Shown here: positions 2,093-42,389 of the stretch, one piece after another
Numbering within the stretch: the stretch's first letter is position 1
How the letters are laid out: the number at the start of each line of letters is the position of its first letter
Assembly (NCBI GenBank): GCA_003176165.1
Contig: PSRQ01000022.1
Coordinates: 1 to 48,564, forward strand
Length of the DNA stretch: 48,564 bases
Source of the DNA: Candidatus Cerribacteria bacterium 'Amazon FNV 2010 28 9'
Lineage (GTDB): Bacteria; Patescibacteriota; Microgenomatia; UBA1400; UBA12028
Direction: 5' to 3'
Notes under the pieces: model-generated
Databases searched by the model: none
Told to the model about the DNA's origin: nothing
Seen by the model: the letters and a program-made list of their open reading frames with translations, nothing else
Program-made: the position numbers and the translations under genes

Positions 2093-4756
2093 ATGAAAAA
2101 ACAAAAGCAGAGTATTTCATTATTTTTTGTACGAGCATTTCTGGGTGTGTGTTTTATTGTGATTTTTCTTATTTCTACGAGGAATGTTTTCGCGCAATCG
2201 TGTAGTAATTTACGATGCTGTACTGCCTATGTAACTGTGTATGATCCCTTTGGATGTGATAGTAGTGGTTGTCCTCCCAAAACTCTTCCCAACGGAGATC
2301 CAAATCCAGATTATAATCCATCCTGCTATAACTGCACAAGCAATCATCAAGCTTGTGGACTTTATCAAAACTTTACATGCAATCCTCCATCTGGCCAGTG
2401 CGACCCATTCATTCCTCAGGCGTGCCAAGGAGAAGTGAGTGGATGTAGTCAACTTGGACCTCCCCCAAGCAGTGGACCTACTCCTACCCCTGGAGGTGGC
2501 GGAGGTGGTGGGGTCACCTGTGGAGGTGGCAGTAACCCTGCGTGTTATTCCGTAGGCAACTGTGGAGTCGTGGGAAAAACACCAGGATCGGGAAGTTGTA
2601 GTGCGGGACAGATTTGCTGTATCGATAAATCGGGAGGAGGTGCGACGTCTACCAATCAAGGTGTGTTCGTGTATTGCCAGGATGGCAGTGGTCCGCAATA
2701 TCCACTCCCCGGAATCCGTGTGCTTTCTGTTGGAACGCATAGCAACAATGACTGTAGTGGAAATTGTCGTCAATCATATCCGGATGTGACCACTGACTCT
2801 AATGGACGGGCTATGTTTGGATTGCTTTCCACGTTCCCCGCAGAGTATTTTGAGTTTGCTCTCGATGTGCCAGGATGGGAGTCGGGGGGAAGTTGGATTT
2901 TGCATACCAATCCACTGACTCAGTATGCAGGAACAAAGATCGCGGCGACGGGGCAAGATTATGCAAACCTGACGTTGGGTGATACGCACAACTCCGTACT
3001 CGAAAACTGTGCAAATGGTGGAGGTGTGTGGGGATGTCCGATCATTGGGGGTACTTCATCACAGTGTGGAGGATGGTACTGTAGTGCTGGAGGAGGAAGC
3101 TGGGGAACGTCCACTCCAATTTTGTACCAAGTACAGGAAAATAACAATTCAGATAATGGTGGAGGTGGGTATCAAGCTCATTTCCACTTTAGTAACTGTA
3201 GTTGTTCAGCACCCTTGGCTCCCAATCCGACCAACCCGCTCGATGGAGGGACACTTACCTTGAATGGCAGTAATCAAGTGACCGTCTCCTGGACCGCTCT
3301 CTCTGGAATCACCCAATATGACCTTGAGCTCTACCCGACTGGAACAGATTGCAACAATTCAAACTCGCACTGTACGTATGTGGGTGGAGTAGGAGGAGGG
3401 ATTACCGGCACTTCGTATACCTTTACTCCTGCAGCGGGGGTGAGCTCGTATTACTTCCATGTTCGAGGGGTCAATACGAGCTGTACAGGAAACCTTACCG
3501 GTGCATGGTCCAGTGATGCAAACTTTACTATTTCGGGAACATTGTCTGGAACGGTATACAATGATCCATCTGGAGTAGGGCAACTATCTGGCACATTGTG
3601 CCAAAATCTTTCTGGACAAACACTCTCTCCAATTGGAAGTGGAACGGTGAATGTACAACCAAATACAGGAGTGGGAAGCTCGCAAGGATTTGTACAATCC
3701 AATGGGACATGGAGCGCTACAGCTCAATTTGGACCACTCAATACTGTGTCCATCTCACCTAGCGATCCCTCATATTTTTGTACTTGTCCACTGGGGTGTG
3801 GATATGGAGGAATAACACCAAACAAAACAGGTGTTGATTTCTATCTGAGTAAAATTGGCACGGCATGGTATCAAGTCAAAGGAGGAGATGCGATCGCTGG
3901 CATTGTGAGTTCAAGTCGATTTACGGACCCGATCACCTCCCAGTGTACGACTCCAAGTTGTTCTCCATACGTGATCTTGCCATTTGACAATAGTGGTGTC
4001 AGTGAAGGATCGCTGACTGTGGGCCCTGGTACGACCATTGATGATTCTGATCAATCAGGTAATCAATCGACCAATATTGGAGCTCCAGGATCAAACTACG
4101 TTGCGACGATGAATAGCTCGCTTGCATGTAAAGAAAATTACGAGTACTTTTATCGCCTCTACAGTATGGGGACGAGTCCGCAGGATGATTTCACTGCGCC
4201 CGCAAATCCACCGACCAATGCCGCGTTGCCGTCGGTTGCGCCGCTCAATAAAAACGTGGATGGATCAAGTAAAAATTCCTACTATCACAATGGCGACCTC
4301 ACGATTGGACAAAACTGGACGGTGCCTGCAGCAGGATCGTACGTTATTTTCGTCAACGGCAATTTAAATATCACCAATAATGCACAGATTACTGTGCCGC
4401 AGGGAGCGTTCTTGTCATTTTTCGTCAGCGGTAATATCACGATTGATCCGACTGTTGGAAGTATAATTCCAAGTTCCACTACCGGTGTGGTACAAGGGAT
4501 CTATATTGCCGATGGATCGCTCACCGTCCAATCTGCAGGCTCTGGAAATACTGAGAAGAAATTTATTGGCGAAGGGACATTTGCAGCCTGCCAGGGGGTG
4601 TCACTGCCTCGTGATTATCGCAATGGAGGTGATCAAGCGGGACTCAATAACAATACGTATCCAACCTCACTCTTTGTATTCCGTCCTGACTTTATGATGA
4701 ATACCCCAGCGACGATGAAGGTAGCCCCATTCAATTGGAAGCAGGTGGCACCATAA
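2093..4756 (+). CDS. large secreted Cys-rich surface protein (FN3-like and beta-helix-like segments)
   Basis: 887-aa ORF. It has an N-terminal signal/anchor ending VFAQS, dense Cys modules, poly-Gly and Pro/Thr linkers, and a VTVSWTALSGITQYDLELYP FN3-like stretch. C-terminal NGNLNITNN / SGNITIDP repeats look beta-helix-like. Confidence 0.7.
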   Translation: MKKQKQSISLFFVRAFLGVCFIVIFLISTRNVFAQSCSNLRCCTAYVTVYDPFGCDSSGCPPKTLPNGDPNPDYNPSCYNCTSNHQACGLYQNFTCNPPSGQCDPFIPQACQGEVSGCSQLGPPPSSGPTPTPGGGGGGGVTCGGGSNPACYSVGNCGVVGKTPGSGSCSAGQICCIDKSGGGATSTNQGVFVYCQDGSGPQYPLPGIRVLSVGTHSNNDCSGNCRQSYPDVTTDSNGRAMFGLLSTFPAEYFEFALDVPGWESGGSWILHTNPLTQYAGTKIAATGQDYANLTLGDTHNSVLENCANGGGVWGCPIIGGTSSQCGGWYCSAGGGSWGTSTPILYQVQENNNSDNGGGGYQAHFHFSNCSCSAPLAPNPTNPLDGGTLTLNGSNQVTVSWTALSGITQYDLELYPTGTDCNNSNSHCTYVGGVGGGITGTSYTFTPAAGVSSYYFHVRGVNTSCTGNLTGAWSSDANFTISGTLSGTVYNDPSGVGQLSGTLCQNLSGQTLSPIGSGTVNVQPNTGVGSSQGFVQSNGTWSATAQFGPLNTVSISPSDPSYFCTCPLGCGYGGITPNKTGVDFYLSKIGTAWYQVKGGDAIAGIVSSSRFTDPITSQCTTPSCSPYVILPFDNSGVSEGSLTVGPGTTIDDSDQSGNQSTNIGAPGSNYVATMNSSLACKENYEYFYRLYSMGTSPQDDFTAPANPPTNAALPSVAPLNKNVDGSSKNSYYHNGDLTIGQNWTVPAAGSYVIFVNGNLNITNNAQITVPQGAFLSFFVSGNITIDPTVGSIIPSSTTGVVQGIYIADGSLTVQSAGSGNTEKKFIGEGTFAACQGVSLPRDYRNGGDQAGLNNNTYPTSLFVFRPDFMMNTPATMKVAPFNWKQVAP

Positions 4757-4792
4757 AACATACTTCGCACAACAATTTTTTTAAATTTTTCC

Positions 4793-4820
4793 AAAAAAAC
4801 CCTCGGGTTGCCCCGAGGGT
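4793..4820 (-). terminator. intrinsic terminator (T-run on minus strand, possibly bidirectional)
   Basis: CCCTCGGG ttg CCCCGAGGG hairpin with an A7 run on the plus side, which is a T-run for the minus gene ending at 4826. Confidence 0.6.
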
Positions 4821-4825
4821 AGAGT

Positions 4826-6103
4826 TTATGGAGTGAGAGAAAAGGTGCTGCTTTGTATGGTTGTGTCCCGTATCGTTAGCAAACATCCTCCCATGAGGAG
4901 GAGGAGAGCCAGAGGGATGATCGGGATCGCGTTGGTAATTCCAGTTGGTAAAAAATAGGCAACACCACTCGTAAACGCAAACGCTGGTAAAGTGATCCAA
5001 CGGATCGTTGTATTTCCCATGGTTTGCACCACCGCCAGGATCAGACCACACAGTGATGCCTCCAACAGTTCCGTCAGTGATCCCTGAATGGCGATATACA
5101 CGAGGAACACTCCTAGCAGGAGGAGCAGATGTGTGTCGATGTGTTTCTGACGCCGCACCCACCCGATTCCACAGACTGCTGTGAGTGCAAGCAACCCCTT
5201 TTGAAAGGTAGCCATGCTGCTCGCGAAGGGTGTAAATCCCAAGAATCGGTAACTATATGCTTCAAATGAAGCATTCGTTCCCTTGGGGACGATCCACCAG
5301 GGATAATTGATGTGGGCACTCAAGAGAAACTGTACATAGGAGGCACACAATGTCCCGAGCTGGGGTCCAGCAAAGAACACGATAGGGAGTGACGCCACCC
5401 CCAGAGCAATGCTACTGCCGCGTACGAACGCGCCTCGTTTGGAGGTGAGCAGGAGGATTGCTAGCCATACAAATATAAATTGAGGCTTGATACAAGCACT
5501 CACTATGCCTGCAGCTCCGGCCAACTGGTACTTGCCTTTTGATGTGGCAAACACCTGAAGAACCATGAGGAAAATCAATGGGCAAGCCATGTTTCCCGTA
5601 TGGATATTCATAAGATAATTGGTTGAAACGAATGCCAGACCAAAAAAAATCCGTGCATTCCATGTCCGTCGCTTTTCCTCTGGAATCATAGACCAGATCA
5701 TGATCCAGGAGGCGAGATAGCACATTGCGCTCACTATCCCTAGACCAAGCTGTATTTCCTTGTCAGAAAAGAAGCGAACCAAGACCGTCATCCATCCCAA
5801 AAATTGAGGCGGATATTGGAAAATGAGTTGATCCGGCCACGGACTCATAAAGTACTGAAACGTCCCAGTCGATAATTGGTGTGCTGCTGTCAGATACACC
5901 CGTAAATCGACATCTGGGTCAAACAGACTATTCATCTGGAAGGAGGGCGGTTTGGTGAATTTCAAATACATGACCATACACCAAAAAATTCCTCCTACGA
6001 AACCCAAGAGGAGGAGAGGAGACCAGAATTTGAATATCCCCCAGAAAGAGGAGGGCGTGTGCTCGTTTGGCTTGCCTTTGAGAGGCAGCGAAATGGTTGA
6101 CAT
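4826..6103 (-). CDS. polytopic membrane protein, GT-C / DUF2029-like glycosyltransferase (tentative)
   Basis: 425-aa ORF with more than 10 hydrophobic spans. The architecture resembles GT87/DUF2029 mannosyltransferase-like proteins, recalled from memory and not searched. Confidence 0.45.
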   Translation of the reverse strand: MSTISLPLKGKPNEHTPSSFWGIFKFWSPLLLLGFVGGIFWCMVMYLKFTKPPSFQMNSLFDPDVDLRVYLTAAHQLSTGTFQYFMSPWPDQLIFQYPPQFLGWMTVLVRFFSDKEIQLGLGIVSAMCYLASWIMIWSMIPEEKRRTWNARIFFGLAFVSTNYLMNIHTGNMACPLIFLMVLQVFATSKGKYQLAGAAGIVSACIKPQFIFVWLAILLLTSKRGAFVRGSSIALGVASLPIVFFAGPQLGTLCASYVQFLLSAHINYPWWIVPKGTNASFEAYSYRFLGFTPFASSMATFQKGLLALTAVCGIGWVRRQKHIDTHLLLLLGVFLVYIAIQGSLTELLEASLCGLILAVVQTMGNTTIRWITLPAFAFTSGVAYFLPTGITNAIPIIPLALLLLMGGCLLTIRDTTIQSSTFSLTP

Positions 6104-6271
6104 GTGCGATTTCCTTTTACTTGTTTATGAAAAAAGACGGATGAAAAGCACCTTTTTCTTCACTTTTTACAGATCATCTCTGCTGAACAGAGAATCTATC
6201 CAGAGAGAAAAAGGCGTTCTTTTACGTTTCCGCCTCGAGTAATTATACCTTATTCCAGAGGTAATATTTAC

Positions 6272-6300
6272 TTGATTCTTTCAAAACGTTCATATATAAT
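6272..6300 (+). promoter_or_regulatory. sigma70-like promoter
   Basis: TTGATT (6272-6277), a 17-nt spacer, then TATAAT (6295-6300). Confidence 0.55.
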
Positions 6301-6304
6301 ATAT

Positions 6305-6423
6305 AAAAGTGGTTTGAAGCACCAGAAGTGCACCCACTTTTGATCCAAGTAACAACACCCGCCTCCTCGGCGGGGGAAACCAAGATATCAAAAGGAGGGT
6401 GATTTTTTTTACCCTCAAACCAT
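6305..6423 (+). promoter_or_regulatory. structured 5' leader with SD-sequestering hairpin
   Basis: Nested hairpin AAAAGTGG..GCAC cagaa GTGC..CCACTTTT (6305-6341), then CCCGCC tcctc GGCGGG. GGAGGGT (6394-6400) pairs with ACCCTC (6411-16) just before ATG 6424. Confidence 0.4.
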
Positions 6424-7170
6424 ATGGCAAAACAAAAAGAAGAACTTCACCTTCTTGCCACAAGTAAAGAATCAGCAGTCTCTATTTATCAAGAGATTCA
6501 CGGAATTCCTGCCGTGAACGCATCTCCCGAAAAATTATCAGGTCTCACCGAGCCTCGTAGCAACCATCCATTGCGGCCAGCTATGTGGAAAGACCATCAA
6601 GTTGTTCATAACTATGGCGCAAAAGATGGGCAACGCTTGGTTGTGACGGCTTCAGATGTGGTTTTTAAATTGAACGGCAAGAACAACCATAAGCCTGGTC
6701 GTGAAGATAATGCCATTCTTACCCCAGAAGGAAATATGCATGAGGGATATATCGCGGAAGCTCAAGAATGGTATAAAGATCCATTCATTGCATTGTGGTC
6801 CGTGGCTTTTGTGTTTCACAATGTGAATAAATTAAATCGCGTTGCTGTTGTTTCGATCGAGGCGAACTTTCCACAAGGTATACCTCAGGATATTGTCCGT
6901 AAGCAATATAATTCTGCCATGAATACGCGTTTACCCCTGATAGAACTTGCTCCTGAGTACGGGGCGACGGTTTCTATTTCTAATGATGGAAAGACTGAAC
7001 AAGTTCCTTTGGATCCTCTGATAGCCGTGCAACTTATTCGTGATCGGGTGTTGACCAAAGAATGGCAGGATCAGATGCAGACTATTACCCCGTCTCGTGT
7101 GGTAAGAGACGAGTGGGGAACACGTCGGGGATTAGTTACATTAGGGCTTACGCGTACCCCAAGAGAATAA
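6424..7170 (+). CDS. hypothetical protein
   Basis: 248-aa ORF with ordinary globular composition. I recognise no motif. Confidence 0.6.
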   Translation: MAKQKEELHLLATSKESAVSIYQEIHGIPAVNASPEKLSGLTEPRSNHPLRPAMWKDHQVVHNYGAKDGQRLVVTASDVVFKLNGKNNHKPGREDNAILTPEGNMHEGYIAEAQEWYKDPFIALWSVAFVFHNVNKLNRVAVVSIEANFPQGIPQDIVRKQYNSAMNTRLPLIELAPEYGATVSISNDGKTEQVPLDPLIAVQLIRDRVLTKEWQDQMQTITPSRVVRDEWGTRRGLVTLGLTRTPRE

Positions 7171-7174
7171 TCGG

Positions 7175-7432
7175 GTGTATACTATAGGTATGGAAAAACC
7201 AAAAGTTATCACATTACCAGATGGAAGAAAAGCCGTGGATGTGTCTCAAGATTATTATCTGACCACAATCAAAGGCAGAACGGGCCTTTTTCCCAAGAAT
7301 GATTTATCTGGTGAAAACACACCACTCTCAGTTCCAGAGGCGATGGCGGCTTCGGTGTTACCTGGACTTTTGGGAATGGCAATGAAAATGAGAGATGAAA
7401 CAGCAACAGCTCTCATCGTTGAAATTCTATAA
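7175..7432 (+). CDS. hypothetical small protein
   Basis: 85-aa ORF with a GTG start (alternative ATG at 7193), 4 nt after the previous stop. A terminator follows. Confidence 0.45.
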   Translation: MYTIGMEKPKVITLPDGRKAVDVSQDYYLTTIKGRTGLFPKNDLSGENTPLSVPEAMAASVLPGLLGMAMKMRDETATALIVEIL

Positions 7433-7528
7433 CTTCCTATGATCAAATCTCTTTTCTCCTACACTATTTGCTTTTCAACTGCTTCTGTTCTTCTCTCATA
7501 AGAGAATGAGGAGTTTTGATTGTTTTTT

Positions 7529-7552
7529 AGCCTCCTCCGTGGAGGTTTTTTT
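7529..7552 (+). terminator. intrinsic terminator
   Basis: AGCCTCC tccgt GGAGGT hairpin followed by a T-run. Confidence 0.55.
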
Positions 7553-7572
7553 ATAGAAATGGATGATACACT

Positions 7573-8892
7573 ATGAACATGACTGATGAGATTTTTTCGC
7601 TTATCGATGCAGAAGCGGCGCGACAACTTGATACGCTCATGTTAATTCCTTCGGAAAATTATGCGAGCCGTGCTGTGCGCGAAGCCGCCGGGTCGATTCT
7701 GTGTAACAAATACTCGGAAGGGTATCCAGGACGACGATATTATGAAGGCAATGAGATCATTGACCAGATAGAAACAGAAACGACTGAACGTGCCAAAAAA
7801 ATATTTGGTGTTCCGTATGCAAATGTCCAACCGTACTCGGGAAGTCCAGCCAATAGCGAAATTTTATTTGCACTTGCTGTTCCAGGGAGCACGATCATGG
7901 GGTTGAAGCTCGCAAGTGGAGGCCATCTAACGCACGGACATCCAAATGTCACATTTTCAGGGAAATATTATCGCTCTGTGCAGTTTGGGTTAACAGTTGA
8001 TGGGCAGATTGATTATGAGGAGATGCGCGAAAAAGCGCTGCTTGAGAAGCCGAGTGTCATTATTCTCGGAACTACCGCACACCCATTTATGCTCGATTGG
8101 CAAAAAGCACGCGAAATTGCGGATGAAGTGGGTGCGTACTTAGTTGCCGACATTTCTCATATCGCGGGACTTATCATCGCAGGAGTTCACCCATCTCCAG
8201 TTTCATATGCACACGTGATCATGACGACGACGCACAAGACACTGCGCGGTCCGCGCGGTGCGATGATTTTGGTGACAGATGCGGGGTTGAAAAAGGATAG
8301 CGAGTTACCAAAAAAGATTGATATGGCAGTGATCCCGGGGATGCAGGGTGGACCACACAATCATACGACGGCTGCGATTGGTATCGCATTGGGTGAAGCA
8401 GCAACTGCAGAGTTCACCGCATATGGGAAACAAATTGTTGCGAATGCGAGAGCACTTGCGAACGCGTTGAAAAAGAAGGGTATTCAGCTCGTTGGAGGTG
8501 GGACGCAAAATCATTTGATAGTCATGGATTTTGCCTCCACAGGTGAAGGGCAAGGTGTACTCGTTGCCAAAGCTATGAATGCCGCAGGACTTGTCGCTAA
8601 CTTCAATACCGTGCCTTCTGATACAAGTCCTTTTTACCCATCTGGCGTGCGCATTGGGACACCTGCGGTGACAACGCGAGGGATGAAAGAAACAGAAATG
8701 GAGCAGATTGCGGATTGGATTGCACAAGTTGTGAATCATGTGAAACATATCCATGTGCCAACTGAGAAAAAAGAACGCGCGGCGTTTGTTCAACAGTTTG
8801 CATGGGATGTAAAAATGGATGCGTTTTTGTTAAACATTGCGAAAGAAGTACGCGCGCTTTGTGCACAATTTCCAGTAGAAAGGGAAGTATGA
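7573..8892 (+). CDS. glyA: serine hydroxymethyltransferase
   Basis: SENYASRAV, YSEGYPGRRYYEG and TTTHKTLRGPRG (PLP-lysine) motifs over the full length. Confidence 0.95.
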   Translation: MNMTDEIFSLIDAEAARQLDTLMLIPSENYASRAVREAAGSILCNKYSEGYPGRRYYEGNEIIDQIETETTERAKKIFGVPYANVQPYSGSPANSEILFALAVPGSTIMGLKLASGGHLTHGHPNVTFSGKYYRSVQFGLTVDGQIDYEEMREKALLEKPSVIILGTTAHPFMLDWQKAREIADEVGAYLVADISHIAGLIIAGVHPSPVSYAHVIMTTTHKTLRGPRGAMILVTDAGLKKDSELPKKIDMAVIPGMQGGPHNHTTAAIGIALGEAATAEFTAYGKQIVANARALANALKKKGIQLVGGGTQNHLIVMDFASTGEGQGVLVAKAMNAAGLVANFNTVPSDTSPFYPSGVRIGTPAVTTRGMKETEMEQIADWIAQVVNHVKHIHVPTEKKERAAFVQQFAWDVKMDAFLLNIAKEVRALCAQFPVEREV

Positions 8893-9278: not shown

Positions 9279-10169
9279 ATGTTTATTGGGGGACATGTTA
9301 GCGCAGCGGGTGGAATTAGCTTGGCGTATGGACGAGCCAAAGAGATTGGGGGCAATGCCGTCCAAATTTTTTCTGCAAGTCCTCGTGTGTGGACACGTAA
9401 AGATATAGCACAAAGCGAAATTGATCGCTGCCTGCAATTTCAAAAAGAGTTGGGTATTACAAAAACAGTTATTCACGCCATTTATTTAGTCAATCTTGCC
9501 TCGGATAACAAAGAGTTGGTTGAAAAATCACGCAACTGTATTGAATTTGATTTACGTGTGGATGCGGCACTACATGGGAGTGGTGTTGTGGTGCATGTGG
9601 GCAGTCATCAAGGAAAAGGATTTGAGGCGGTCTTTGATCAGCTCGTACATGAGATTAAAATCATTCTTTCCAATACTCCTGAAAATTCCACCTTTCTCAT
9701 CGAAAATAGTGCAGGACAAAATGGAAAAATTGCGTCGGATTTGAGTGAAATTCGCCGTCTCATCGACGCAGTGGGTTCGCCTCGATTGGGGTGGTGCTTG
9801 GATACGTGTCATGCATTTTGCGCAGGATACGAGCTAGAGAACTCATTAAATTCTCCCCTTTCGCACCAACCACCCCTAACCCCTCCTTCGGAAGGAGGGG
9901 AATCAAAAAATGTAATTGAAGAAATTGATCGATTACAGTTGTGGGATACCCTGAAGGTCGTACATGTGAATGACTCGCGTGACTCGTTTGATAGTGGTCG
10001 TGATCGTCACGAAAATATTGGTGAGGGAAGCATCGGAGATGATGTGTTTCGTTCCTTTTTCTCGCATGAAAAGATCCGCACACTTCCGCTCATTATAGAA
10101 GTACCTGGGATTGATCACAAGAGTGGGCCGGATAAAGAGAACATAGAACGAGTGAAAAGGTTGATGTAA
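9279..10169 (+). CDS. nfo: endonuclease IV (AP endonuclease family 2)
   Basis: MFIGGHVSAAGG, IENSAGQ, LDTCHAFCAGY and HVNDS..RDRHENIGEG motifs. Confidence 0.9.
   Translation: MFIGGHVSAAGGISLAYGRAKEIGGNAVQIFSASPRVWTRKDIAQSEIDRCLQFQKELGITKTVIHAIYLVNLASDNKELVEKSRNCIEFDLRVDAALHGSGVVVHVGSHQGKGFEAVFDQLVHEIKIILSNTPENSTFLIENSAGQNGKIASDLSEIRRLIDAVGSPRLGWCLDTCHAFCAGYELENSLNSPLSHQPPLTPPSEGGESKNVIEEIDRLQLWDTLKVVHVNDSRDSFDSGRDRHENIGEGSIGDDVFRSFFSHEKIRTLPLIIEVPGIDHKSGPDKENIERVKRLM
9853..9903. repeat. CCCCTCC-type hairpin element inserted in frame in nfo
   Basis: TTCTCCCCTTTCG..CCACCCCTAA then CCCCTCCTT cgg AAGGAGGGG (9880-9900). The segment CCACCCC..GGAGGGG (about 9869-9901) matches 28/33 with 45874-45906. 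It encodes SPLSHQPPLTPPSEGGE. Confidence 0.7.
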
Positions 10170-10177
10170 TACTCAAC

Positions 10178-10283
10178 TTTGTCATCTCGACCGTGCCAAG
10201 TAATCTTGGCAGTGGAGAGATCCCTTTCAGATCCATCCGAAAGCGATTCCTCATCTGCGCTTCGCTCCGTTCGGAATGACAAG
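10178..10283 (+). repeat. MITE-like element about 100 bp long (GTCATC..GAATGAC termini)
   Basis: About 66 of the first 75 positions are identical to the reverse complement of 33281-33375. Lies in the nfo-folD spacer. Confidence 0.75.
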
Positions 10284-10324: not shown

Positions 10325-11311
10325 ATGAGTATTATTTTCGACGGAAAAGCATTCGCACACAAAAAAGAACTCCAACTCAAAAAAGAAGTTGATGATTTGC
10401 GTTCGAGGGGCATTGTTTTACGTGTCAAAACGTTCACGTTCAAAGAAGATGCGGGAAGTATGTTGTACACGCGACTCAAAAAAGAAGCAGCGGCACGCAT
10501 TGGCATCATGTACGAACCAGTTGAATATTCTCTTCACGACGATATTGAACAAATTGCTGAGGCTATTAAAACAGCAAGCGAAGAGAAGGGCATTACGGGG
10601 GTGATGGTGCAAAAACCGGCAAAAGCAGTGTTTAACCAGGAGAGCATTGTCAACAGAAATTTTGAGGATTGGTGGTCAACTTTGACCGCAGCGATCGATT
10701 CCAACAAAGATGTGGATTGTTTGACCAAAGAAAATCTGGAAAGAATCTACAATCTTTCTCCCCTTTCGAAGGGGAGAATACAAGAGGAGTTGGTGGATGG
10801 AGGGGAATACGTGATTCCTGCTACTGTACGAGCTTGTCTTGCAATTTTGGAAGAGGCAAAGCGTGTGTTGAGCATTTCAAACGAAGAATGGAAAAAGAAA
10901 AAAACGCTTGTTATTGGACGATCAGATATTGTGGGGAAACCGTTGGCAGCGTTGTTGAAACAGCGATGTGCAACAGTTGAGAACTGGGGAAGAAAAGAGT
11001 TGGAGAAAAGTATAAAGAAATTTTCAATTTTCAATTTTCAATTTTCAAAAAACATACATAAGAGAGATCATTTTTTAACAACTGACTTCGACATCATTAT
11101 TTCTGCCGTTGGGAAACCAAATTTAATCACAGGAACAAGGGTGAAAGAAGGGGCGATCGTCATCGACGTCGGTGCTCCAAAAGGTGATGTGGAGCGCGAA
11201 AGCGTGGAGTCTACAGCTTCTTTTCTTACTCCTGTTCCCGGTGGAGTTGGTCCCATGACTGTGATATGTTTAATGGAGAGTATTGTAGAGATTGGTAAGA
11301 ATTTTCTCTAA
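10325..11311 (+). CDS. folD: bifunctional methylenetetrahydrofolate dehydrogenase/cyclohydrolase
   Basis: VIGRSDIVGKPLAALL, ISAVGKP, VIDVG and LTPVPGGVGPMT motifs. At 328 aa it carries two extra segments. Confidence 0.9.
   Translation: MSIIFDGKAFAHKKELQLKKEVDDLRSRGIVLRVKTFTFKEDAGSMLYTRLKKEAAARIGIMYEPVEYSLHDDIEQIAEAIKTASEEKGITGVMVQKPAKAVFNQESIVNRNFEDWWSTLTAAIDSNKDVDCLTKENLERIYNLSPLSKGRIQEELVDGGEYVIPATVRACLAILEEAKRVLSISNEEWKKKKTLVIGRSDIVGKPLAALLKQRCATVENWGRKELEKSIKKFSIFNFQFSKNIHKRDHFLTTDFDIIISAVGKPNLITGTRVKEGAIVIDVGAPKGDVERESVESTASFLTPVPGGVGPMTVICLMESIVEIGKNFL
10753..10810. repeat. hairpin element in frame in folD
   Basis: TCTCCCCTT tcg AAGGGGAGA (10757-10777, 9-bp arms) plus a G-rich tail. 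It shares the 13-mer TTCTCCCCTTTCG with the nfo insert. Confidence 0.65.
11018..11051. repeat. tandem heptamer array AATTTTC x4 in frame in folD
   Basis: Copies at 11019-25, 11026-32, 11033-39 and 11040-46. It encodes FSIFNFQFS. Confidence 0.85.
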
Positions 11312-14737: not shown

Positions 14738-15571
14738 CTAGTGTTTCTGGGGTTGTTTGGAGCGAATTGAGAAAAATGCAAGAAGCATGATCCCAATATA
14801 TGCTGGCCCAGTCAATGAAATCGATGTGTGAACTCCAAAGAGTTGAGGTACAAGATCGATAAGAATTCCGATACTCATTGCATGCAAACCCAACTGAATC
14901 AGTTTGATAAATGGAAGTTTTATCCCTAATACCCATGCCAACAGACTTGCAAAAAAGGTAAAGAAAAAGAGGATAAATCCGGTTACAAGGAGTTGGATAA
15001 TAAAAAGAAATGGTGAAAAGACGAGGAGCGCTGCTGTACTGCTTTGGCGTACCTGCTCAATATTTTGGTTAACAAACCATGGTAAATCAGATTTCTTCGC
15101 ACTCCAATTGGAGTCAAAAATTGTATCGTATGTCATTTTTTCAGTGTCATCACCATCGGCATATATGGCATGCGGAGTGATCGTGAAGAGTGCGCTACTT
15201 TGAGCATGATCTTCACTTGTAATAACGGCGATATTTTTAGGAGCTCCAAGGTTTGTTAACTCTGATGGTGACGTAAATGTAAAGGGGAGGGTGAGCCCTT
15301 GGGTTGTGAGCGTATTGTTGGTATAGGAAAAAAAAGTTGTGTCTGGTAGCTGCGCAATAATATCAGAGGCACTTGTTTTCGTTGTTGAAAGCATCATGGG
15401 AACGTCATAGAGACGCAGGACGATGATGAGTCCAATCGTAGCCAATACCACACTGACGAGAAAAAATTGAACGGAAAACCACACTTTTGCTTGGAGAACC
15501 TCGCGATAGTACGAAGGTTCAGAAGCACTTTTAATCAGTGTACGAATGTAGGTGCGCAGTTTGCGAATCAT
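14738..15571 (-). CDS. membrane protein, DUF1189-like (tentative)
   Basis: 277-aa ORF with N- and C-terminal hydrophobic spans. The N-terminus resembles DUF1189 proteins, from memory. Confidence 0.45.
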   Translation of the reverse strand: MIRKLRTYIRTLIKSASEPSYYREVLQAKVWFSVQFFLVSVVLATIGLIIVLRLYDVPMMLSTTKTSASDIIAQLPDTTFFSYTNNTLTTQGLTLPFTFTSPSELTNLGAPKNIAVITSEDHAQSSALFTITPHAIYADGDDTEKMTYDTIFDSNWSAKKSDLPWFVNQNIEQVRQSSTAALLVFSPFLFIIQLLVTGFILFFFTFFASLLAWVLGIKLPFIKLIQLGLHAMSIGILIDLVPQLFGVHTSISLTGPAYIGIMLLAFFSIRSKQPQKH

Positions 15572-19780: not shown

Positions 19781-20482
19781 TTATTGTTGTGTCGTAACAC
19801 CTCTTTTTTGACAGTATTTTTCAATGGGACATGTAGAGCATTTGGGTATTTTTGGAAAACAGATCGTTTGGCCGTGTGCAACAAAGACACGATTGACGAT
19901 CGAGTGAAATCGTTTGGGGATGAGTGTGGTGAGTTGACGCTCTGTTTCTTCGACGGTTGGCATCTCATCTTGTTGAGGACTCCCTCTGTGTCTCCCTCTT
20001 TTTAAGAGGGAAAGTTTCGTATGTGTCCATCCGAGTCGGTACGTGATGCGATGCACATGCGTATCGACCGCGATTTGTGGAGTGTTAAAAAATGTCGTGA
20101 GGATGATGTTGGCAGTTTTTCTCCCAACGCGTGGAAGAGCGAGCAGTTGTTCTTCTGTTTGAGGAACTTTTCCTTGGTATTGGGTGACCAATATGTGGGC
20201 GAGCTCTTTGAGTGCTTTGGCTTTTTGTTGATAAAAGGTGCTGGGGCGGATACGGTCTGTTAACTCTTCCAATGGCATTCGATCAAGATCAGCTGCAGTT
20301 ATGATGTGTTCAAAAAGTTGAGCGGCCAGTGGTACCGTGACACTATCGCGAGAACGTTGCGACAAGATGACCGCAACGAGCATTCGAAACGGATCACCTC
20401 CATGGACTTCATGCATGGCAAGCGTTGGATAGGTTGTGTTGAGAATGTTCAATACTGCTTCAACTTCTGTTTGGGAAGGCAT
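19781..20482 (-). CDS. nth: endonuclease III
   Basis: HhH-GPD motif LPRVGRKTANIIL and a C-terminal CX6CX2CX5C cluster (CFPKIPKCSTCPIEKYC). Confidence 0.88.
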   Translation of the reverse strand: MPSQTEVEAVLNILNTTYPTLAMHEVHGGDPFRMLVAVILSQRSRDSVTVPLAAQLFEHIITAADLDRMPLEELTDRIRPSTFYQQKAKALKELAHILVTQYQGKVPQTEEQLLALPRVGRKTANIILTTFFNTPQIAVDTHVHRITYRLGWTHTKLSLLKRGRHRGSPQQDEMPTVEETERQLTTLIPKRFHSIVNRVFVAHGQTICFPKIPKCSTCPIEKYCQKRGVTTQQ

Positions 20483-20490
20483 ATGATGTT

Positions 20491-20640
20491 AAAAATTTTC
20501 AATTCTCAATTTCCAGTACATATTTAAATGATGTAATGAATAGTTTGAATTATTGTAACATTGAAAATTCAATGCAAATTAAACATTGCATAATTGTAAA
20601 TTGCTCTTGACGCTTTTCGCTTCACGCTTTACGCTGTCAC
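20491..20640. repeat. block of degenerate tandem heptamer arrays in the nth-rdgB spacer
   Basis: TTCAATT CTCAATT (20491-20519). AACATTG AAAATTC AATGCAA ATTAAAC ATTGCAT AATTGTA AATTGCT (20557-20605). CTTGACG CTTTTCG CTTCACG CTTTACG CTGTCAC (20606-20640). Confidence 0.75.
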
Positions 20641-21850: not shown

Positions 21851-21878
21851 CAATTTTCAATATTCAATGTTCAACTTA
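21851..21878. repeat. tandem heptamer array CAANNTT x4
   Basis: CAATTTT CAATATT CAATGTT CAACTTA. Its reverse complement matches AACATTGAAAATT at 20557-20570 (about 13/14). Confidence 0.65.
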
Positions 21879-22335: not shown

Positions 22336-23556
22336 ATGCAAGCAAAACAGTTGGGAATCCTCATCGGTACCTATGCAGTGACTGCCATTGTCGCGTTCGT
22401 GGGATTTAAAATGGCGTTCAATAGCGGAGCACTGACTCCTTCACTTCCAGGAAATAGTGGACTTGCCGGACTCATTTCTCCAGTTGTTCCTGGTGCGAGT
22501 GGCAGTTTGGCTGTGAATACACAAGCTCCAAAGACCGAAGTCTGTCCAATCAATGGTGAAAAGTACACAGCGGCAGAAAAAGATGCGTGGAGTAAGCAAC
22601 GCCCTCTCATGGTCATGATTGAAAATCATCCCGATGCGCGTCCTCAATCAGGTCTGGATTTTACAGATGTTGTATATGAGACTGTTGCCGAGGGAGGGAT
22701 CACTCGTTTTATGGGTGTCTTCTACTGTGCAGCTCAAGCCAAAGATGAAATTGTCGCTCCAGTGCGTAGTGCTCGCCAAGCATTTATTGATTATGCAAGT
22801 GAGTACAACTTCCCACTCTATGCGCATGTCGGAGGTGCTAACAACTTCCCACCCCAAACAGATGGAGGAACAGATCCTCGCGTTCAAGCGCTTGAGCACC
22901 TTCAACAGTATGGATGGACACTTTCTAATGATATTGATGGAATGTCAGCGGGTTACCCAACCTTTGTGCGTAACTACAATCGTATTCCTGGAAAGCAAAT
23001 TGCAACCGAACATACAATGGAATCCTCCACGTATCGACTTTGGGATTTGGGTGCAAAGCGCGGCTTAACTGATATTGGGAAAGATGGCAAAGATTGGCAA
23101 ACAGGATTTGTCCCATGGCAGTTCCAAGACGATGCCGATGCGGGTGCACGTCCTCAATCACAAGTGGTCAAATATGACTTTTGGTCAGGAATTCCAGGGT
23201 TTGACGTGCAATGGAACTATGATCCAAGTACCAATGAGTACAAGCGAACTATGGCTGGTGCTCCTCATATCGATCAGGATGACAATCAGCAATTGACTGC
23301 GAAAAATGTCGTTGTTCTTTATACAAAAGAGTATCCCTCAGTTGATATGCACAAACACGTGTATTACCAAACTATAGGAAATGGCAATGCTGTTGTCTTC
23401 CAAGATGGTGTGCGTATTGATGCGACTTGGGTTAAGAAAGACCGCTTATCTCGCTTAACCTTCCTTGATAGCAAGGGACATGAGATTAAGTTTGTCCGGG
23501 GTCGCATCTGGATTACGATCTTGGGGACGGGGAATACATCTCTGTCTGTGCAGTAA
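22336..23556 (+). CDS. DUF3048 (YerB-like) secreted protein
   Basis: N-terminal TM helix and MIENHPDARPQSGLDFTDVVYETVAEGGITRFMGVFY, typical of DUF3048. Confidence 0.75.
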   Translation: MQAKQLGILIGTYAVTAIVAFVGFKMAFNSGALTPSLPGNSGLAGLISPVVPGASGSLAVNTQAPKTEVCPINGEKYTAAEKDAWSKQRPLMVMIENHPDARPQSGLDFTDVVYETVAEGGITRFMGVFYCAAQAKDEIVAPVRSARQAFIDYASEYNFPLYAHVGGANNFPPQTDGGTDPRVQALEHLQQYGWTLSNDIDGMSAGYPTFVRNYNRIPGKQIATEHTMESSTYRLWDLGAKRGLTDIGKDGKDWQTGFVPWQFQDDADAGARPQSQVVKYDFWSGIPGFDVQWNYDPSTNEYKRTMAGAPHIDQDDNQQLTAKNVVVLYTKEYPSVDMHKHVYYQTIGNGNAVVFQDGVRIDATWVKKDRLSRLTFLDSKGHEIKFVRGRIWITILGTGNTSLSVQ

Positions 23557-31039: not shown

Positions 31040-31194
31040 TTTTTGTACCATACCTTTTCTCAAAATCCATACTAGATTTTTGGTAACGGCGATCTATACT
31101 CATGCTCAATCCCGGTGAGGATTCCCACAACACGTGGGAAAAAACCTGCCACCACGACTCACTGTAGTTGTCGGTGGTAGGTGTGGTTACAACA

Positions 31195-31308
31195 TTGTCA
31201 TCCTCATGAAAATGAGGATCATGAAACGCTTGGATTGATCCGTTCGTTTCGGTTTGATCAGAACCTTTCTCACAAAGGGATGATCCTCGCCTGCGCGAGG
31301 ATGACAAA
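31195..31308. repeat. GTCATCC..GGATGAC MITE-like element with two internal hairpins
   Basis: TTGTCATCCTCAT gaaa ATGAGGAT ... ATCCTCGC ctgc GCGAGGATGACAA. Confidence 0.7.
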
Positions 31309-33280: not shown

Positions 33281-33375
33281 TTGTCATTTCGAGCGAAGTC
33301 GAGAAATCGCTTTCGGATTTTTCCTGAAAGTGATCTCTCCACTGCCAAGATTACTTGGCGCGGTCAAGATGACAA
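33281..33375 (-). repeat. MITE-like element, inverted copy of 10178-10283
   Basis: Its reverse complement aligns with 10178-10283, sharing TTGTCATCT.GACCG.GCCAAGTAATCTTGGCAGTGGAGAGATC. Confidence 0.75.
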
Positions 33376-34297: not shown

Positions 34298-34367
34298 AAG
34301 AAACACAGAACAAGAGTTAAGAGGTAGGAAGTAAGAATCTTAACTCATAACTCTTATCTCTTAAATC
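34298..34367. repeat. ten tandem heptamers forming a self-complementary arm pair
   Basis: AAGAAAC ACAGAAC AAGAGTT AAGAGGT AGGAAGT AAGAATC TTAACTC ATAACTC TTATCTC TTAAATC. GAGTTAAGA / TCTTAACTC form a 9-bp stem. Confidence 0.7.
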
Positions 34368-34505
34368 AGTAGTGGGTCAGTTTGAAAGTCGTTTGCTGTG
34401 CTCTCAAAAGAAGTATACACTAAATGTGATACAATTCTGTTTTCTTGCTCATTAAAAAGTCACATACTGGGTCGGCGAAGAAATATCATTTCTCCAAGTA
34501 AAACA

Positions 34506-34990: not shown

Positions 34991-35866
34991 TCATGAGTCA
35001 ATCATGAGCTTGATAATCTCCTCTATCATCCATTGATGATCCGCAATCCCAGCAACCATTGCAGGAGTAATACCCAACGATCGTTTTGGATTGAGGGATT
35101 GATGTGGTCTGCAGAAGTTGTAATACATGAAATGCAGTGCAACCGCAGCTTCTAGGTTTTCGACTTTCTTGGAAAAGCCATTCGTAAGACGAGTAAATCT
35201 GCGCATACTCATGCGCATCGTGAGATTCTGACGTTCAACAAAGCTTGTGGAGATAAATTTCTTCTTTGGTCTACCACTGATTTTCTTTTTCTCCATGCCG
35301 ATACATTCATGTGGCGAGTAACGACGTTCATGTTCCTCCGTTTCAAAGAAAATGCGACCATACTGCTTCTCAACCATCCCGTAGTGCACGCGCTTCCCGA
35401 AAGTACCTTGAACAGCGTTCTCGTAAGCACGTAGACCATCGGTGCTGAGCTGCACCTTATTCTTCAGTCTTGGTTCCAGATCTTCCATGAAAGTGTACGC
35501 AGACTCCTCATCTCGATGACCGATGAACCATGAAATTACGAGTTTTGAATCACTATCCAGTGCTACCCAGGTCCATATGGTTCCATATCCTTCCTTTCCT
35601 TGAAGGTCTTCAGGAAGGTTCTTTTGTTTGGCGTAACAAAATGACCAGATCTCATCACATTCAATCCGAGAGCAATGAAGGTTTACCAATACTTCATCTT
35701 GATATGCTGAACACGCCTTTCCAACCCGCACCAAAAGCCTCGTAACTGTTCCTTTGGCTGTTCCCGTCATTCGACAGGTGGCACGAATGGAATTGCCTTC
35801 TACAAGGCAAGAAAGGATCTGACATTGCTTCTCTTTACTCAAGACGTTCATCCCTATATTATACAT
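34991..35866 (-). CDS. IS1 family DDE transposase
   Basis: HTH NSIRATCRMTGTAKGTV. ECDEIWSF, LSTDGLRAY and FVERQNLTMRMSMRRFTRLTNGFSKKVENL match the IS1 InsB-type catalytic core. Alternative start ATG 35851. Confidence 0.8.
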   Translation of the reverse strand: MYNIGMNVLSKEKQCQILSCLVEGNSIRATCRMTGTAKGTVTRLLVRVGKACSAYQDEVLVNLHCSRIECDEIWSFCYAKQKNLPEDLQGKEGYGTIWTWVALDSDSKLVISWFIGHRDEESAYTFMEDLEPRLKNKVQLSTDGLRAYENAVQGTFGKRVHYGMVEKQYGRIFFETEEHERRYSPHECIGMEKKKISGRPKKKFISTSFVERQNLTMRMSMRRFTRLTNGFSKKVENLEAAVALHFMYYNFCRPHQSLNPKRSLGITPAMVAGIADHQWMIEEIIKLMIDS

Positions 35867-40544: not shown

Positions 40545-40573
40545 TTGACAATTTTCCCTAAACTTCGTATTGT
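40545..40573 (+). promoter_or_regulatory. sigma70-like promoter upstream of dnaX
   Basis: TTGACA, a 17-nt spacer, then TATTGT. Confidence 0.5.
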
Positions 40574-40604
40574 GCATTCTAGTGGCTAGTTTTCCTTGTT
40601 GTTT

Positions 40605-40633
40605 GAAAATTAAAAATTTGTAAATTGAAAATT
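40605..40633. repeat. left inverted heptamer arm flanking dnaX
   Basis: GAAAATT AAAAATT T GTAAATT GAAAATT, 27/29 identical to the reverse complement of 42317-42345. Confidence 0.85.
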
Positions 40634-40640
40634 GATTTGT

Positions 40641-42314
40641 ATGTCTTGGTATCGTCAATATCGACCACAAACTGTAGCTGGTCTTCACATCACTCCCGTG
40701 CGGGAGAATTTTTTACATATCTTGGAAAGTGGATCCTTTGCGCATGCGTACCTTCTCTGTGGTCCCAAAGGAACGGGGAAGACAAGCGGTGCACGGATAT
40801 TGGCAAAAGTGTTGAACTGTGAAAAAAATAGGGAAACAATACAGAGGGGATGGGTTGGGGATCAGGGGTTAGAAAAGAAAGCGGAAAGTGGAAAGGGGAA
40901 AACGCTTGACGCTAAACGCTTCACTCTCTGTGAGCCATGCAATGTATGTCCAACGTGTATCGCCATCACCAATGGAACGAGTATGTGTGTGACAGAAATG
41001 GATGCGGCGAGCAATCGTGGGATTGATGATATTCGAGAGTTGACCACGAGGGTGGGGCTTTCTCCAGCAGATGGAGTAGTCAGTGTGTACATTATTGATG
41101 AAGTGCATATGCTCACAACTGAGGCATTTAATGCCCTGTTGAAAGTGTTGGAAGAGCCACCACAGCACGTTGTCTTTATTTTAGCGACAACAGAGCGTCA
41201 CAAAGTTCCTGAGACGATTTTGTCCCGTTGTCAGCTGATCGCGTATCGCAAAGCCACTATTGATGAGGTATGGGTGGCCCTGCGCGCGATTGCAACGGCC
41301 GAAAGAATTGAGGCAAGTGATGAAGTGTTGCGACGGATCGCCACTCTTGCAGATGGGAGTTTACGTGATGGAGTGAAGTTGTTTGAGCAGGTTGGAAAAG
41401 GGAAAACGAGTGTCACCTTGGACGAAGTGAATAGCTCACTTGGAGAGGGAAATAGTGAGATTGTGGAACAATTCATCACTGCGTTAGCAAAAAAAGATAT
41501 CGAGCGCATCCTTACACTTTGTTCTACCCTTGAACAGGGAAGCATCAATGGAGCTCAGTTTCAAAAAGATGTTCTTTCGTCACTGCATGCACGACTCATT
41601 GGAGCCCCTGCAAAAAAGAATCCCCATTTTCCAACCTATGTGGCACTGTTACAAAAGTTAAACGTTGCTATTTCTCCCAATCTTCCCATTCCTTGGCTTC
41701 CATTTGAACTCGCAGCAATGGAGTGGTGTCTCTCCTCTTGTCATTCCGTAGGAGGCAGCGAAGCGTGCCTGCATACGGAATCCACTAAAACTGAACTCAA
41801 TTCGTTGTCTGAGCGAAAAAAGTCAAGCGATAAACCAGATGCAACATTCAAAAATGAGGAGCAAGCAAGTTCTACTCTTGATTCTTTACCCTTAACCCTT
41901 CCAAAAGAAAAAGAAGTTGTTGATGTAAAAAAAAAGAATGAAGAGCCTCTTGAGTTAGAAAGTATCCCCATTGATTTTCAAACATTTCTCTCCTCCTGGC
42001 ATAGTGTATTGCAGTTACTCAAAAGTAAAAACTCTTCACTGGAGGCATTATTACGCTCGACAAAGCCCACAGGTATTGCCGGAAAATATGTTGAAGTCAG
42101 TGTGTCATACAAATTTCACAAAGAGCAACTGGAATTGGATCGCAATTTACTTGTCATCGAAGATGTGTTGTTTGCGATTTATAAATTGAAAATGACGCTA
42201 CGTTTTTCACTCGTTGAAAAAGCAAAGCAAGCTGCCATTTCTCCTGACAGTAATTTGTCGGGAGTGGTACACGATGTATCGCTCGTCAAAGCTGCCGAAG
42301 ATGCATTCCTGTGA
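40641..42314 (+). CDS. dnaX: DNA polymerase III subunit gamma/tau
   Basis: WYRQYRPQT, GPKGTGKTS Walker A, the CEPCNVCPTC zinc module, and the SRC motif (ILSRCQ). Confidence 0.9.
   Translation: MSWYRQYRPQTVAGLHITPVRENFLHILESGSFAHAYLLCGPKGTGKTSGARILAKVLNCEKNRETIQRGWVGDQGLEKKAESGKGKTLDAKRFTLCEPCNVCPTCIAITNGTSMCVTEMDAASNRGIDDIRELTTRVGLSPADGVVSVYIIDEVHMLTTEAFNALLKVLEEPPQHVVFILATTERHKVPETILSRCQLIAYRKATIDEVWVALRAIATAERIEASDEVLRRIATLADGSLRDGVKLFEQVGKGKTSVTLDEVNSSLGEGNSEIVEQFITALAKKDIERILTLCSTLEQGSINGAQFQKDVLSSLHARLIGAPAKKNPHFPTYVALLQKLNVAISPNLPIPWLPFELAAMEWCLSSCHSVGGSEACLHTESTKTELNSLSERKKSSDKPDATFKNEEQASSTLDSLPLTLPKEKEVVDVKKKNEEPLELESIPIDFQTFLSSWHSVLQLLKSKNSSLEALLRSTKPTGIAGKYVEVSVSYKFHKEQLELDRNLLVIEDVLFAIYKLKMTLRFSLVEKAKQAAISPDSNLSGVVHDVSLVKAAEDAFL
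40881..40929. repeat. seven tandem heptamers in frame in the dnaX zinc-module loop
   Basis: GCGGAAA GTGGAAA GGGGAAA ACGCTTG ACGCTAA ACGCTTC ACTCTCT. CTTGACGCT..CGCTTCAC also occurs at 20606-20626. Confidence 0.65.
41738..41783. repeat. GTCATTCCGTAGGAGGCAG..GCCTGCATACGGAATCC element in frame in dnaX
   Basis: Same element type as the secD tail copy (25689-25750). It encodes CHSVGGSEACLHTES. Confidence 0.7.
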
Positions 42315-42316
42315 AA

Positions 42317-42345
42317 AATTTTCAATTTACGAATTTTCAATTTTC
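42317..42345. repeat. right inverted heptamer arm flanking dnaX
   Basis: AATTTTC AATTTAC G AATTTTC AATTTTC, starting 2 nt after the dnaX stop. Confidence 0.85.
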
Positions 42346-42389
42346 ATTCGTCGTGTTACCATAGCGCTGTTAAAAGAAAAAGGAGTCGT

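Follow-up and report, generated by a model that had tools for sequence, protein, structure and literature searches.

In the genome of Candidatus Cerribacteria bacterium 'Amazon FNV 2010 28 9', the gene dnaX, which encodes DNA polymerase III gamma/tau, is flanked by two inverted arms of 29 nt, each built of tandem heptamers. The window, i.e., the whole stretch of DNA analysed here, is contig PSRQ01000022.1 from position 1 to 48,564. The arms are not a unique pair but members of a repeat family, a fact that had escaped the original prediction, in which an essential replication gene appeared to be framed like a cassette. Each of them is probably the solo end, a terminal inverted repeat of 29 nt, of a palindromic element that is dispersed, built of heptamers and of the type known as intervening sequences (IVS) in ribosomal RNA (rRNA). 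On this reading the bracket is not a cassette, and it is no structure devoted to dnaX either; what is new is that an IVS-type element also acts as a dispersed intergenic repeat, here in the form of two solo ends around dnaX.

The Arms Flanking dnaX

The left arm (GAAAATTAAAAATTTGTAAATTGAAAATT) occupies positions 40605-40633 of the forward strand, and the right arm lies at 42317-42345 on the reverse strand, its reverse complement reading GAAAATTGAAAATTCGTAAATTGAAAATT; with one arm inverted, 27 of the 29 positions are identical. With a repeat finder, the inverted match stretches to 30 nt (40604-40633 and 42317-42346, 93%). In RNA, one of the two differences becomes a G.U wobble and the other an A.C mismatch, and because of the wobble 28 pairs can form between the arms. 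The enclosed dnaX gene (557 aa, forward strand, ATG at 40641, TGA at 42312-42314) was recognized with Pfam by the domains DNA_pol3_delta2, AAA and DnaX_C; the left arm ends 7 nt 5′ of the ATG, and the right arm starts 2 nt 3′ of the TGA. The arms, their coordinates, their degree of identity and the two gaps had all been described in the original prediction and were borne out by the sequence and by Pfam.

The inverted arms around dnaX are confirmed as real and well above chance. The window contains five GAAAATT-like arrays of at least three units, as against 0.03 expected from Markov-1 simulated sequences, and 11 occurrences of the 14-mer GTAAATTGAAAATT with up to two mismatches, where 1.45 are expected. 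Tandem arrays of period 7, whatever their sequence, number 13 (0.5 expected), with those of periods 5, 6 and 8-11 at the background level. The 29-mer itself consists of direct heptamers and is not self-complementary, so that palindromy arises only between two arms; no local partner was found for either arm, and the spacer holding the left arm folds no better than its shuffles (z +1.0).

A Dispersed Family of 29-nt Repeats

Both dnaX arms, with their odd 1-nt spacer and their GTAAATT unit, conform to the sequence GAAAATTRAAAATTNGTAAATTGAAAATT; exact matches to it number at least 120 in public metagenome contigs and come from about 60 sample identifiers. The host contigs are distant, with a best tblastn identity to proteins of the window (DnaB, DnaX and others) of 30-47%, and because exact matches are so numerous in such distant hosts, the dnaX arms are regarded as copies of a widely shared element and not as a local duplication. 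The left arm differs from the family consensus at one position and the right arm at none. The family counts that follow (105, 106 or 113 copies) rest on the matches listed, at least 120 in number, of which 105 are non-redundant copies. Large contigs carry several 29-mers each, at spacings of 0.1-6 kb, and no CRISPR-like regularity was seen in these spacings.

In 66 of the 113 copies listed, TTGTTT or TTGATT stands directly 5′ of the 29-mer, with more heptamer-like AT-rich sequence upstream, and in 64 of the 105 a reverse array lies within 110 nt upstream. The complete element is ordered as reverse 29-mer, AT-rich heptamer-like body and forward 29-mer. Among the matches listed, about 30 distinct reverse and forward pairs lie less than 600 nt apart with their outer ends pointing outward, when up to five mismatches per arm are allowed, a few of these being register-shifted matches within arrays. 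The complete elements are 81-216 nt long, and two long forms that carry an IVP gene measure 440 and 458 nt. They form AU-rich hairpins of −33 to −54 kcal/mol (z −7 to −11), and in two folded copies with exact arms the 29-mers make up a basal stem of 32-36 bp (−48 and −54 kcal/mol, z about −11).

Because sequence conservation stops abruptly past GAAAATT-3′, with an information content of about zero directly beyond, this is taken as the outer end of the element. The family shares with transposon-derived repeats its multiple copies, short length, inverted ends and sharp boundary, but not a target-site duplication, none that is consistent having been found at the flanks of the listed pairs; in some copies the palindrome extends further. 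In the window, the outer ends of both arms are directed at dnaX, and since they face the gene, dnaX lies outside two half-elements, which contradicts its framing as a cassette. The left-arm unit, including the family-typical TTGTTT that precedes it (40599-40604), is a solo terminal repeat at 40599-40633 of the forward strand. One half-element sits between ybeY and dnaX and the other between dnaX and ybaB. The bracket would be a by-product of two neighbouring copies, and the half-elements may be the result of a half-insertion or of their distal arms having been lost.

The canonical 29-mer was absent from viral contigs. The simpler (GAAAATT)3 was seen in viral contigs at 39 loci (L013-L051) near gene starts, in either orientation and mostly in tandem. 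These arrays often comprise exactly four units after AATT, occur several to a contig in contigs of mid to high GC content, and are sometimes found beside arrays of other heptamers. A shortened 29-mer pattern, also tried on viral contigs, was discarded, as it matched only unrelated coding sequence of low-GC phages. Literature searches returned no paper describing the GAAAATT element or its intergenic dispersal.

Insertions in rRNA Genes and IVP Cargo

At about 10 loci among the matches listed, the 29-mer lies in or beside a large-subunit (LSU) rRNA gene (Rfam and blastn), and several copies are located inside such genes (Rfam). The copy at locus L103 fills the hairpin loop at position 583/584 of the Rfam LSU model, i.e., helix 25, one of the classic sites of IVSs, and the helix-25 placement rests on this one mapped copy. 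At L133, the 23S rRNA gene (3077-7614) is 4.5 kb long and holds three copies of the GAAAATT element together with a group I intron. An open reading frame (ORF) of 130 aa that matches PF05635 at 53 bits lies between the arms at L119, and a homologous ORF is present at L164; the IVP gene of these two loci is the only cargo, among the matches listed, between arms that are less than 600 nt apart with their outer ends outward. IVP is a four-helix-bundle protein to which, to our knowledge, no catalytic role has been assigned.

The family thereby displays the features that define an IVS, i.e., a basal stem made of terminal repeats, insertion at the tip of a 23S helix and an optional IVP ORF, while the copies flanking dnaX are intergenic, unlike the rRNA-borne members. 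In Coxiella, RNase III cuts the terminal stem of the IVS, which is 28 bp long and includes one mismatch, the S23p start codon comes just 3′ of tandem heptamer repeats, and excision without ligation is known for IVSs (PMC4990558). In the Candidate Phyla Radiation (CPR), the group to which the genome of the window belongs, rRNA genes contain many short non-intron insertions at IVS sites, as well as IVP ORFs (PMC11270868). The arms had been likened in the original prediction to the processing stalks of rRNAs and IVSs that are cut by RNase III, and at the level of the sequence family this comparison is apt, as the 29-mer is the basal stem of 23S insertions, including one at the helix-25 site. The long AU duplex that had been envisaged can also form: a duplex check gave 28 bp at −29.2 kcal/mol, the size of the Coxiella IVS stem.

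Placement at Gene Boundaries

The outer end of the repeat lies at the stop codon of a convergent ORF in 51 of the 105 copies (48 at a stop only), mostly within −2 to +4 nt, and at the start of a same-strand ORF in 24 (21 at a start only); three copies are at both and 33 at neither boundary. The right dnaX arm therefore has the commonest placement of the family and the left arm the second. In the forward direction, 22 of 106 cases have an ORF that starts with ATG no more than 15 nt from the outer end, versus 4 of 100 in the reverse control. Copies are also found in frame, in reverse orientation, inside protein loops. The element appears to be tolerated because forward copies lie outside ORFs and the array, read in reverse orientation, carries no stop codons.

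A scan for such arrays had been proposed together with the original prediction, the expectation being that inverted pairs would abut start and stop codons more often than chance. The preference for ORF boundaries was upheld by the figures above, whereas bracketing of one ORF at both start and stop was not enriched: ORFs with a reverse array at the stop are no more likely than others to have a forward array at the start (3 of 59 versus 79 of 807 ORFs, n = 866, odds ratio 0.49, p 0.35). Nor does the arrangement call for a system without precedent, as had been supposed, since dispersed palindromic repeats commonly abut ORF boundaries. Consecutive copies more than 500 nt apart, among the matches listed, are tandem in 12 cases, convergent in three and divergent in none. 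The three convergent far pairs are those around dnaX in the window, around grpE-dnaK at L084 and, as a looser case, at L114. At L084, the grpE-dnaK operon is framed by two complete elements (905-980 and 3357-3430) whose gene-facing ends are exact 29-mers. Next to this operon is a gene for an HNH endonuclease.

The dnaX Locus in Related Genomes

An exact-protein lookup of the DnaX of the window returned no other contig, and the closest DnaX among 5.8 billion proteins is 56% identical; the closest genomes bear Microgenomates or Patescibacteria names. In three related loci with 53-55% DnaX identity (L008, L010 and L011), the order ybeY-dnaX-ybaB is retained, and neither arms nor GAAAATT arrays are present. 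The order is, to judge from these loci, ancestral, and since it is kept in relatives that lack the arms, dnaX has not been moved and the arms were gained in place. Together with the lack of a target-site duplication, this speaks against the arms as footprints of recombination or mobilisation, another suggestion made for them. The comparison of dnaX loci, which had likewise been proposed, also went against conserved pairing of the flanks, the complementarity between the 5′ and 3′ flanks being at shuffle level in nine related dnaX loci, among which the window alone stands out in flank pairing (−29.2 versus −10.2 +/- 2.8 kcal/mol). Because the nearest available DnaX relative is only 56% identical, arm pairing could nevertheless have come into use recently in this lineage.

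The three relatives have a leaderless-type promoter immediately 5′ of the dnaX ATG. In the window, the spacer between ybeY and dnaX exceeds that of relatives by about 55 nt, and a promoter-like sequence, TTGACA-17-TATTGT (40545-40573, forward strand, 10/12 matches in a consensus scan), which lies just 3′ of the ybeY stop, is now about 60 nt 5′ of the ATG. If this site is active, the left arm would be transcribed within a dnaX leader of about 60 nt. The right arm covers the region that holds the ybaB −35 box in relatives.

Weighing the Explanations

The view of the dnaX arms as solo ends of an IVS-type repeat draws on observed facts, i.e., family membership, the architecture of the element, its presence in rRNA, the statistics of its placement and the outward orientation of its ends. 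The element may well be selfish or mobile; its mobility is something that we infer, since neither a target-site duplication nor a transposase or an empty site came to light (no dedicated search was made for an autonomous relative encoding a transposase), and these missing hallmarks count against the view. Its effects on dnaX are presumably incidental, and possible side effects would be, on the left, a new leader or a promoter-like TTGTTT-16-TAAATT directed outward and, on the right, AT-rich DNA covering the region of the ybaB promoter. Several further observations sit uneasily with a mere by-product. The 48.5-kb window has just two canonical 29-mers, and these stand on either side of a single gene and point their outer ends at it, an arrangement of two inward copies that would be expected in roughly 1% of cases under random placement (our own estimate, for a finding that was selected post hoc), and the grpE-dnaK operon at L084 is bracketed in the same manner. 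Moreover, the arms are nearly perfect matches to the consensus (one and no mismatches) while the distal halves are wholly gone, and selection could be acting on the gene-proximal halves.

Such selection would be expected if the arms had been co-opted as an RNase III stalk, pairing across 1.7 kb and being cut, which would free a monocistronic dnaX RNA or remove or occlude the leader and so tune expression. The transcript would be ybeY-dnaX-ybaB or one begun at the 40545 promoter, and the duplex would be the same 28-bp structure that forms the base of the IVS hairpins of the family. We consider this proposal unlikely. In its favour, the 28 pairs (−29.2 kcal/mol) are formed in the minimum-energy fold of a 1.8-kb dnaX RNA, and each arm, having no local partner, is the best partner of the other if both are on one RNA. 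The same duplex occurs in 23S rRNA insertions, which presumably need processing, and RNase III cleaves the stem of the Coxiella IVS, which likewise has 28 bp and contains one mismatch (PMC4990558). The left arm is preceded by a promoter-like site, grpE-dnaK at L084 has a like geometry, and the gene-proximal halves are the ones that were retained intact, in the arrangement of two inward copies estimated above at about 1%. However, the arms are unpaired in the minimum-energy fold once ybaB is included, their complementarity is automatic because both are copies of one repeat, bracketing is not enriched (3 of 15 far pairs are convergent; odds ratio 0.49), and long-range pairing would have to compete with ribosomes on a translated mRNA. 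Complementary flanks of at least about 20 bp are present, as in known stalks, but neither conservation nor covariation of the pairing was found in relatives, flank complementarity being absent from the nine related dnaX loci. No RNase III signature was detected in the window, a result that is uninformative either way. A broader version, for which the chances seem just as slim, would have the gene-proximal halves kept for pairing across dnaX, with RNase III trimming the dnaX mRNA (and the grpE-dnaK mRNA at L084) or gating its translation, and with the 29-mer marking a spreading IVS-type mobile element whose partner is IVP.

Co-option at the level of DNA is a possibility to which we would give perhaps one chance in five: the outward end of the element would serve as a promoter, with a −35 box TTGTTT at 40599-40604, a spacer of 16 nt and a −10 box TAAATT at 40621-40626. 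This would leave dnaX with a leader of about 7 nt, and the right arm would be AT-rich upstream DNA for a ybaB promoter (−10 TACCAT near 42357) or an antisense promoter. The excess of ATG codons 0-14 nt after family copies (22/106 versus 4/100 in the reverse control), the TTGTTT or TTGATT box in 66 of 113 copies and the tRNA-like sequences seen (by eye only) 8-11 nt downstream at L127 and L169 would all fit, as would the leaderless-type promoters immediately before the ATG in the dnaX genes of relatives and the Shine-Dalgarno sequences in only about 25-33% of the genes of the window. Yet an outward promoter would run antisense in half of the copies, those that face a stop codon; the 29-mer also occurs inside rRNA genes; and its spacer and discriminator are conserved exactly across distant hosts, unlike those of sigma-70 promoters. 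The right arm, moreover, has no TTGwTT box, and the hexamers of the left arm are weak matches.

That AT-rich heptamers expanded independently in situ by replication slippage, their similarity being due to chance, is highly improbable. Period-7 arrays of several unrelated sequences are indeed enriched in the window, and heptamer simple-sequence repeats are over-represented in bacteria (PMC4692102), but slippage is contradicted by the shared irregular structure (a 1-nt spacer, then GTAAATT) and by the exact 29-mer occurring at least 120 times in other organisms. It is scarcely conceivable, finally, that dnaX is the cargo of a composite or cassette-like mobile unit or that the arms are footprints of its mobilisation. 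This idea had the 29-bp inverted repeats tight against the dnaX ORF in its favour; the sharp ends of complete elements, however, face outward, those around dnaX face inward, the ybeY-dnaX-ybaB order is ancestral, no target-site duplication was found, and the IVP gene is the only cargo of the family between outward-facing arms less than 600 nt apart among the matches listed.

Read as two solo ends of a dispersed repeat, the dnaX bracket is a deflationary result, in that an essential replication gene has not been mobilised and a new framing system is unnecessary. The repeat itself carries the wider interest: a non-coding sequence of 29 nt is letter-perfect across bacteria whose housekeeping proteins are 30-47% identical, and it recurs at the base of the stem in 23S insertions, in intergenic repeats at start and stop codons and in the frame of 23S_rRNA_IVP genes. 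The family thus joins rRNA intervening sequences, dispersed repeats similar to REP or to miniature inverted-repeat transposable elements (MITEs), and heptamer tandem arrays, which are usually treated apart, and the 29-mer offers a sequence handle on the spread of IVSs and on the function of the IVP protein. It also advises caution in the annotation of reduced genomes, where the ends of repeats can provide leaders, stop codons and in-frame peptide insertions.

Other Heptamer Arrays and Repeats in the Window

No Rfam family, tRNA or rRNA gene was found in the 48.5-kb window. A (GAAAATT)x4 array at 11019-11046 (reverse strand) is reverse-oriented with respect to folD (10325-11311) and is translated in frame within a FolD insertion of about 20 aa; in the insertion region (10985-11080), which covers residues ~220-251 and stands out against solved FolD structures, (AATTTTC)x4 encodes KKFSIFNFQFSK. 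Two degenerate arrays of the family lie on the reverse strand, GGAAATTGAGAATTGAAAATT at 20494-20514, 11 nt 5′ of the ATG of an HhH-GPD glycosylase gene (19781-20482, reverse strand), and GAACATTGAATATTGAAAATT at 21852-21872, 2 nt 5′ of the ATG (21849) of a small membrane-anchored ORF. Three forward arrays in the window stop 2-11 nt short of an ATG.

A complete cargo-type element with heptamer arms was found at 47240-47661 on the reverse strand by sequence, inverted repeats and Pfam. It contains a 23S_rRNA_IVP gene (47268-47627, PF05635, 139 bits) with no rRNA gene around it. A G-rich heptamer array (47628-47661) lies directly 5′ of the ATG of this gene, and an inverse C-rich array (47240-47267), which overlaps the dnaB stop at 47243, lies directly 3′ of its TAA. 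The flank duplex of the two arrays amounts to −42.4 kcal/mol, and the whole has the appearance of a full IVS-type element whose arms differ from those at dnaX. Two other C-rich heptamer arrays (CGCTTTx / CCCTTTx), which are 78% mutually complementary, lie at 20601-20636 (forward strand) and 47983-48018 (reverse strand). Both can be read as TTGACG/TTGACC-17-TACGCT, 7-8 nt 5′ of the ATG of rdgB (20643) and of a gene for a membrane protein (47975), respectively, and look like promoters, made of four heptamers each, of leaderless mRNAs. When arrays in general were considered as sigma-70 promoters, these two C-rich arrays fitted, and the GAAAATT arrays at the glycosylase gene and the small ORF did not.

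Leaderless mRNAs may be common in the window: a Shine-Dalgarno match precedes only 13-18 of its 55 ORFs (about 25-33%), and many ORFs have a −10-like box 6-9 nt 5′ of the ATG, e.g., TACTAT-6-ATG at 15571 and TATAAT-6-ATG at 35851. Forward arrays as substitutes for a Shine-Dalgarno sequence were considered and dropped, as about 67-75% of the genes of the window do without one anyway.

Within dnaX itself, a heptamer-periodic stretch of about 90 nt (40838-40929) falls in the loop that joins the Walker A motif to the zinc module, and a further array is found in the linker (41871-41903). At L003, the array GGGGACAGGGGACAGGGAACAGGGGACAG is found in frame within both dnaX and thyA (6185-6216 and 8839-8869), encoding GQGTG(N/D)RGQL. 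Downstream of dnaX, ybaB (42390-42929) consists of two fused YbaB/EbfC domains (42412-42667 and 42670-42925) whose DNA is 75% identical; YbaB usually works as a homodimer.

A purine-rich heptamer array with its inverse directly adjoining (GTTAAGAGGTAGGAAGTAAGAATC / TTAACTCATAACTCTTATCTCTTAA) occupies 34309-34371 in a divergent intergenic region and may form a small palindromic element, the third by sequence type. A dispersed repeat of about 85 nt, which starts with TTGTCATC, is present at 10179-10261 and, inverted and 23 kb away, at 33292-33375, with a 52-nt block of 94% and a 27-nt block of 85% identity. Related hairpins of the form TTGTCATCCTC...GAGGATGACAA occur at 31194-31307 and 23259-23286, and a similar motif, ...GGGATGACAA, comes after the 29-mer at L077, L129, L150 and L177. 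A GC-rich hairpin, CCACCACCCC(T/A)AACCCCTCCT..AGGAGGGG, is found twice (9866-9905 and 45870-45909, 83% identity), one copy lying just 5′ of dnaB; it could be a terminator or another repeat family.

Comparison with Known Systems

The closest counterpart of the family is the 23S IVS of Coxiella, Leptospira, Salmonella and others, which likewise has a terminal stem of about 28 bp, heptamers in the stem region 5′ of the S23p/IVP start, an optional IVP ORF in the loop, insertion at the tip of helix 25 or helix 45, and a sporadic, apparently horizontal distribution (PMC4990558, PMC11270868). Unlike these, most copies of the family are intergenic, against ORF boundaries and outside rRNA. The dnaX arms differ further in that each is a solo half, some 1.7 kb from the other, and in that the gene occupies the flank side and not the loop side, and RNase III cleavage, which is known for IVSs, is putative here.

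Correia/NEMIS elements of Neisseria, REP/BIME and ERIC are short, multi-copy intergenic repeats with inverted ends that are often adjacent to genes; their transcripts form hairpins, some of which are cut by RNase III, and some of the repeats provide outward promoters or stop codons. The present family, in contrast, has heptamer-built arms, is also rRNA-borne, and yielded neither a target-site duplication nor a partner transposase; the 29-mer is also non-palindromic, whereas a REP/BIME unit is itself an imperfect palindrome of 20-40 nt. Rickettsia palindromic elements (RPE) are known for copies in frame within protein genes, where they are tolerated as an extra surface peptide. The FolD array, the heptamer-periodic insert of DnaX and the identical array in dnaX and thyA at L003 are reminiscent of these, but the sequences are unrelated, and only array portions, not whole palindromes, are inside ORFs here.

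In the processing stalks of rRNA, and between the 5′ and 3′ untranslated regions of icaR in S. aureus, complementary flanks pair across distances above 1 kb and serve as RNase III substrates. They have the geometry that the dnaX arms would adopt if paired, an arrangement that is not conserved in related dnaX loci. Tandem arrays of 7-nt units, finally, have been described as TAACTGA in Beggiatoaceae, STRR in cyanobacteria and GGGAATC in Xanthomonas, and are mostly intergenic (PMC4679880, PMC4692102). As in these families, the arrays of the window are enriched for period 7, intergenic and near start codons, with forward copies a few nucleotides from starts that lack a Shine-Dalgarno sequence and stop-free reverse copies tolerated in ORFs (PMC4679880, PMC4692102). 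Those families were described as plain direct arrays, whereas the 29-mer forms the fixed ends of a palindrome, which the intergenic element shares with insertions in rRNA.

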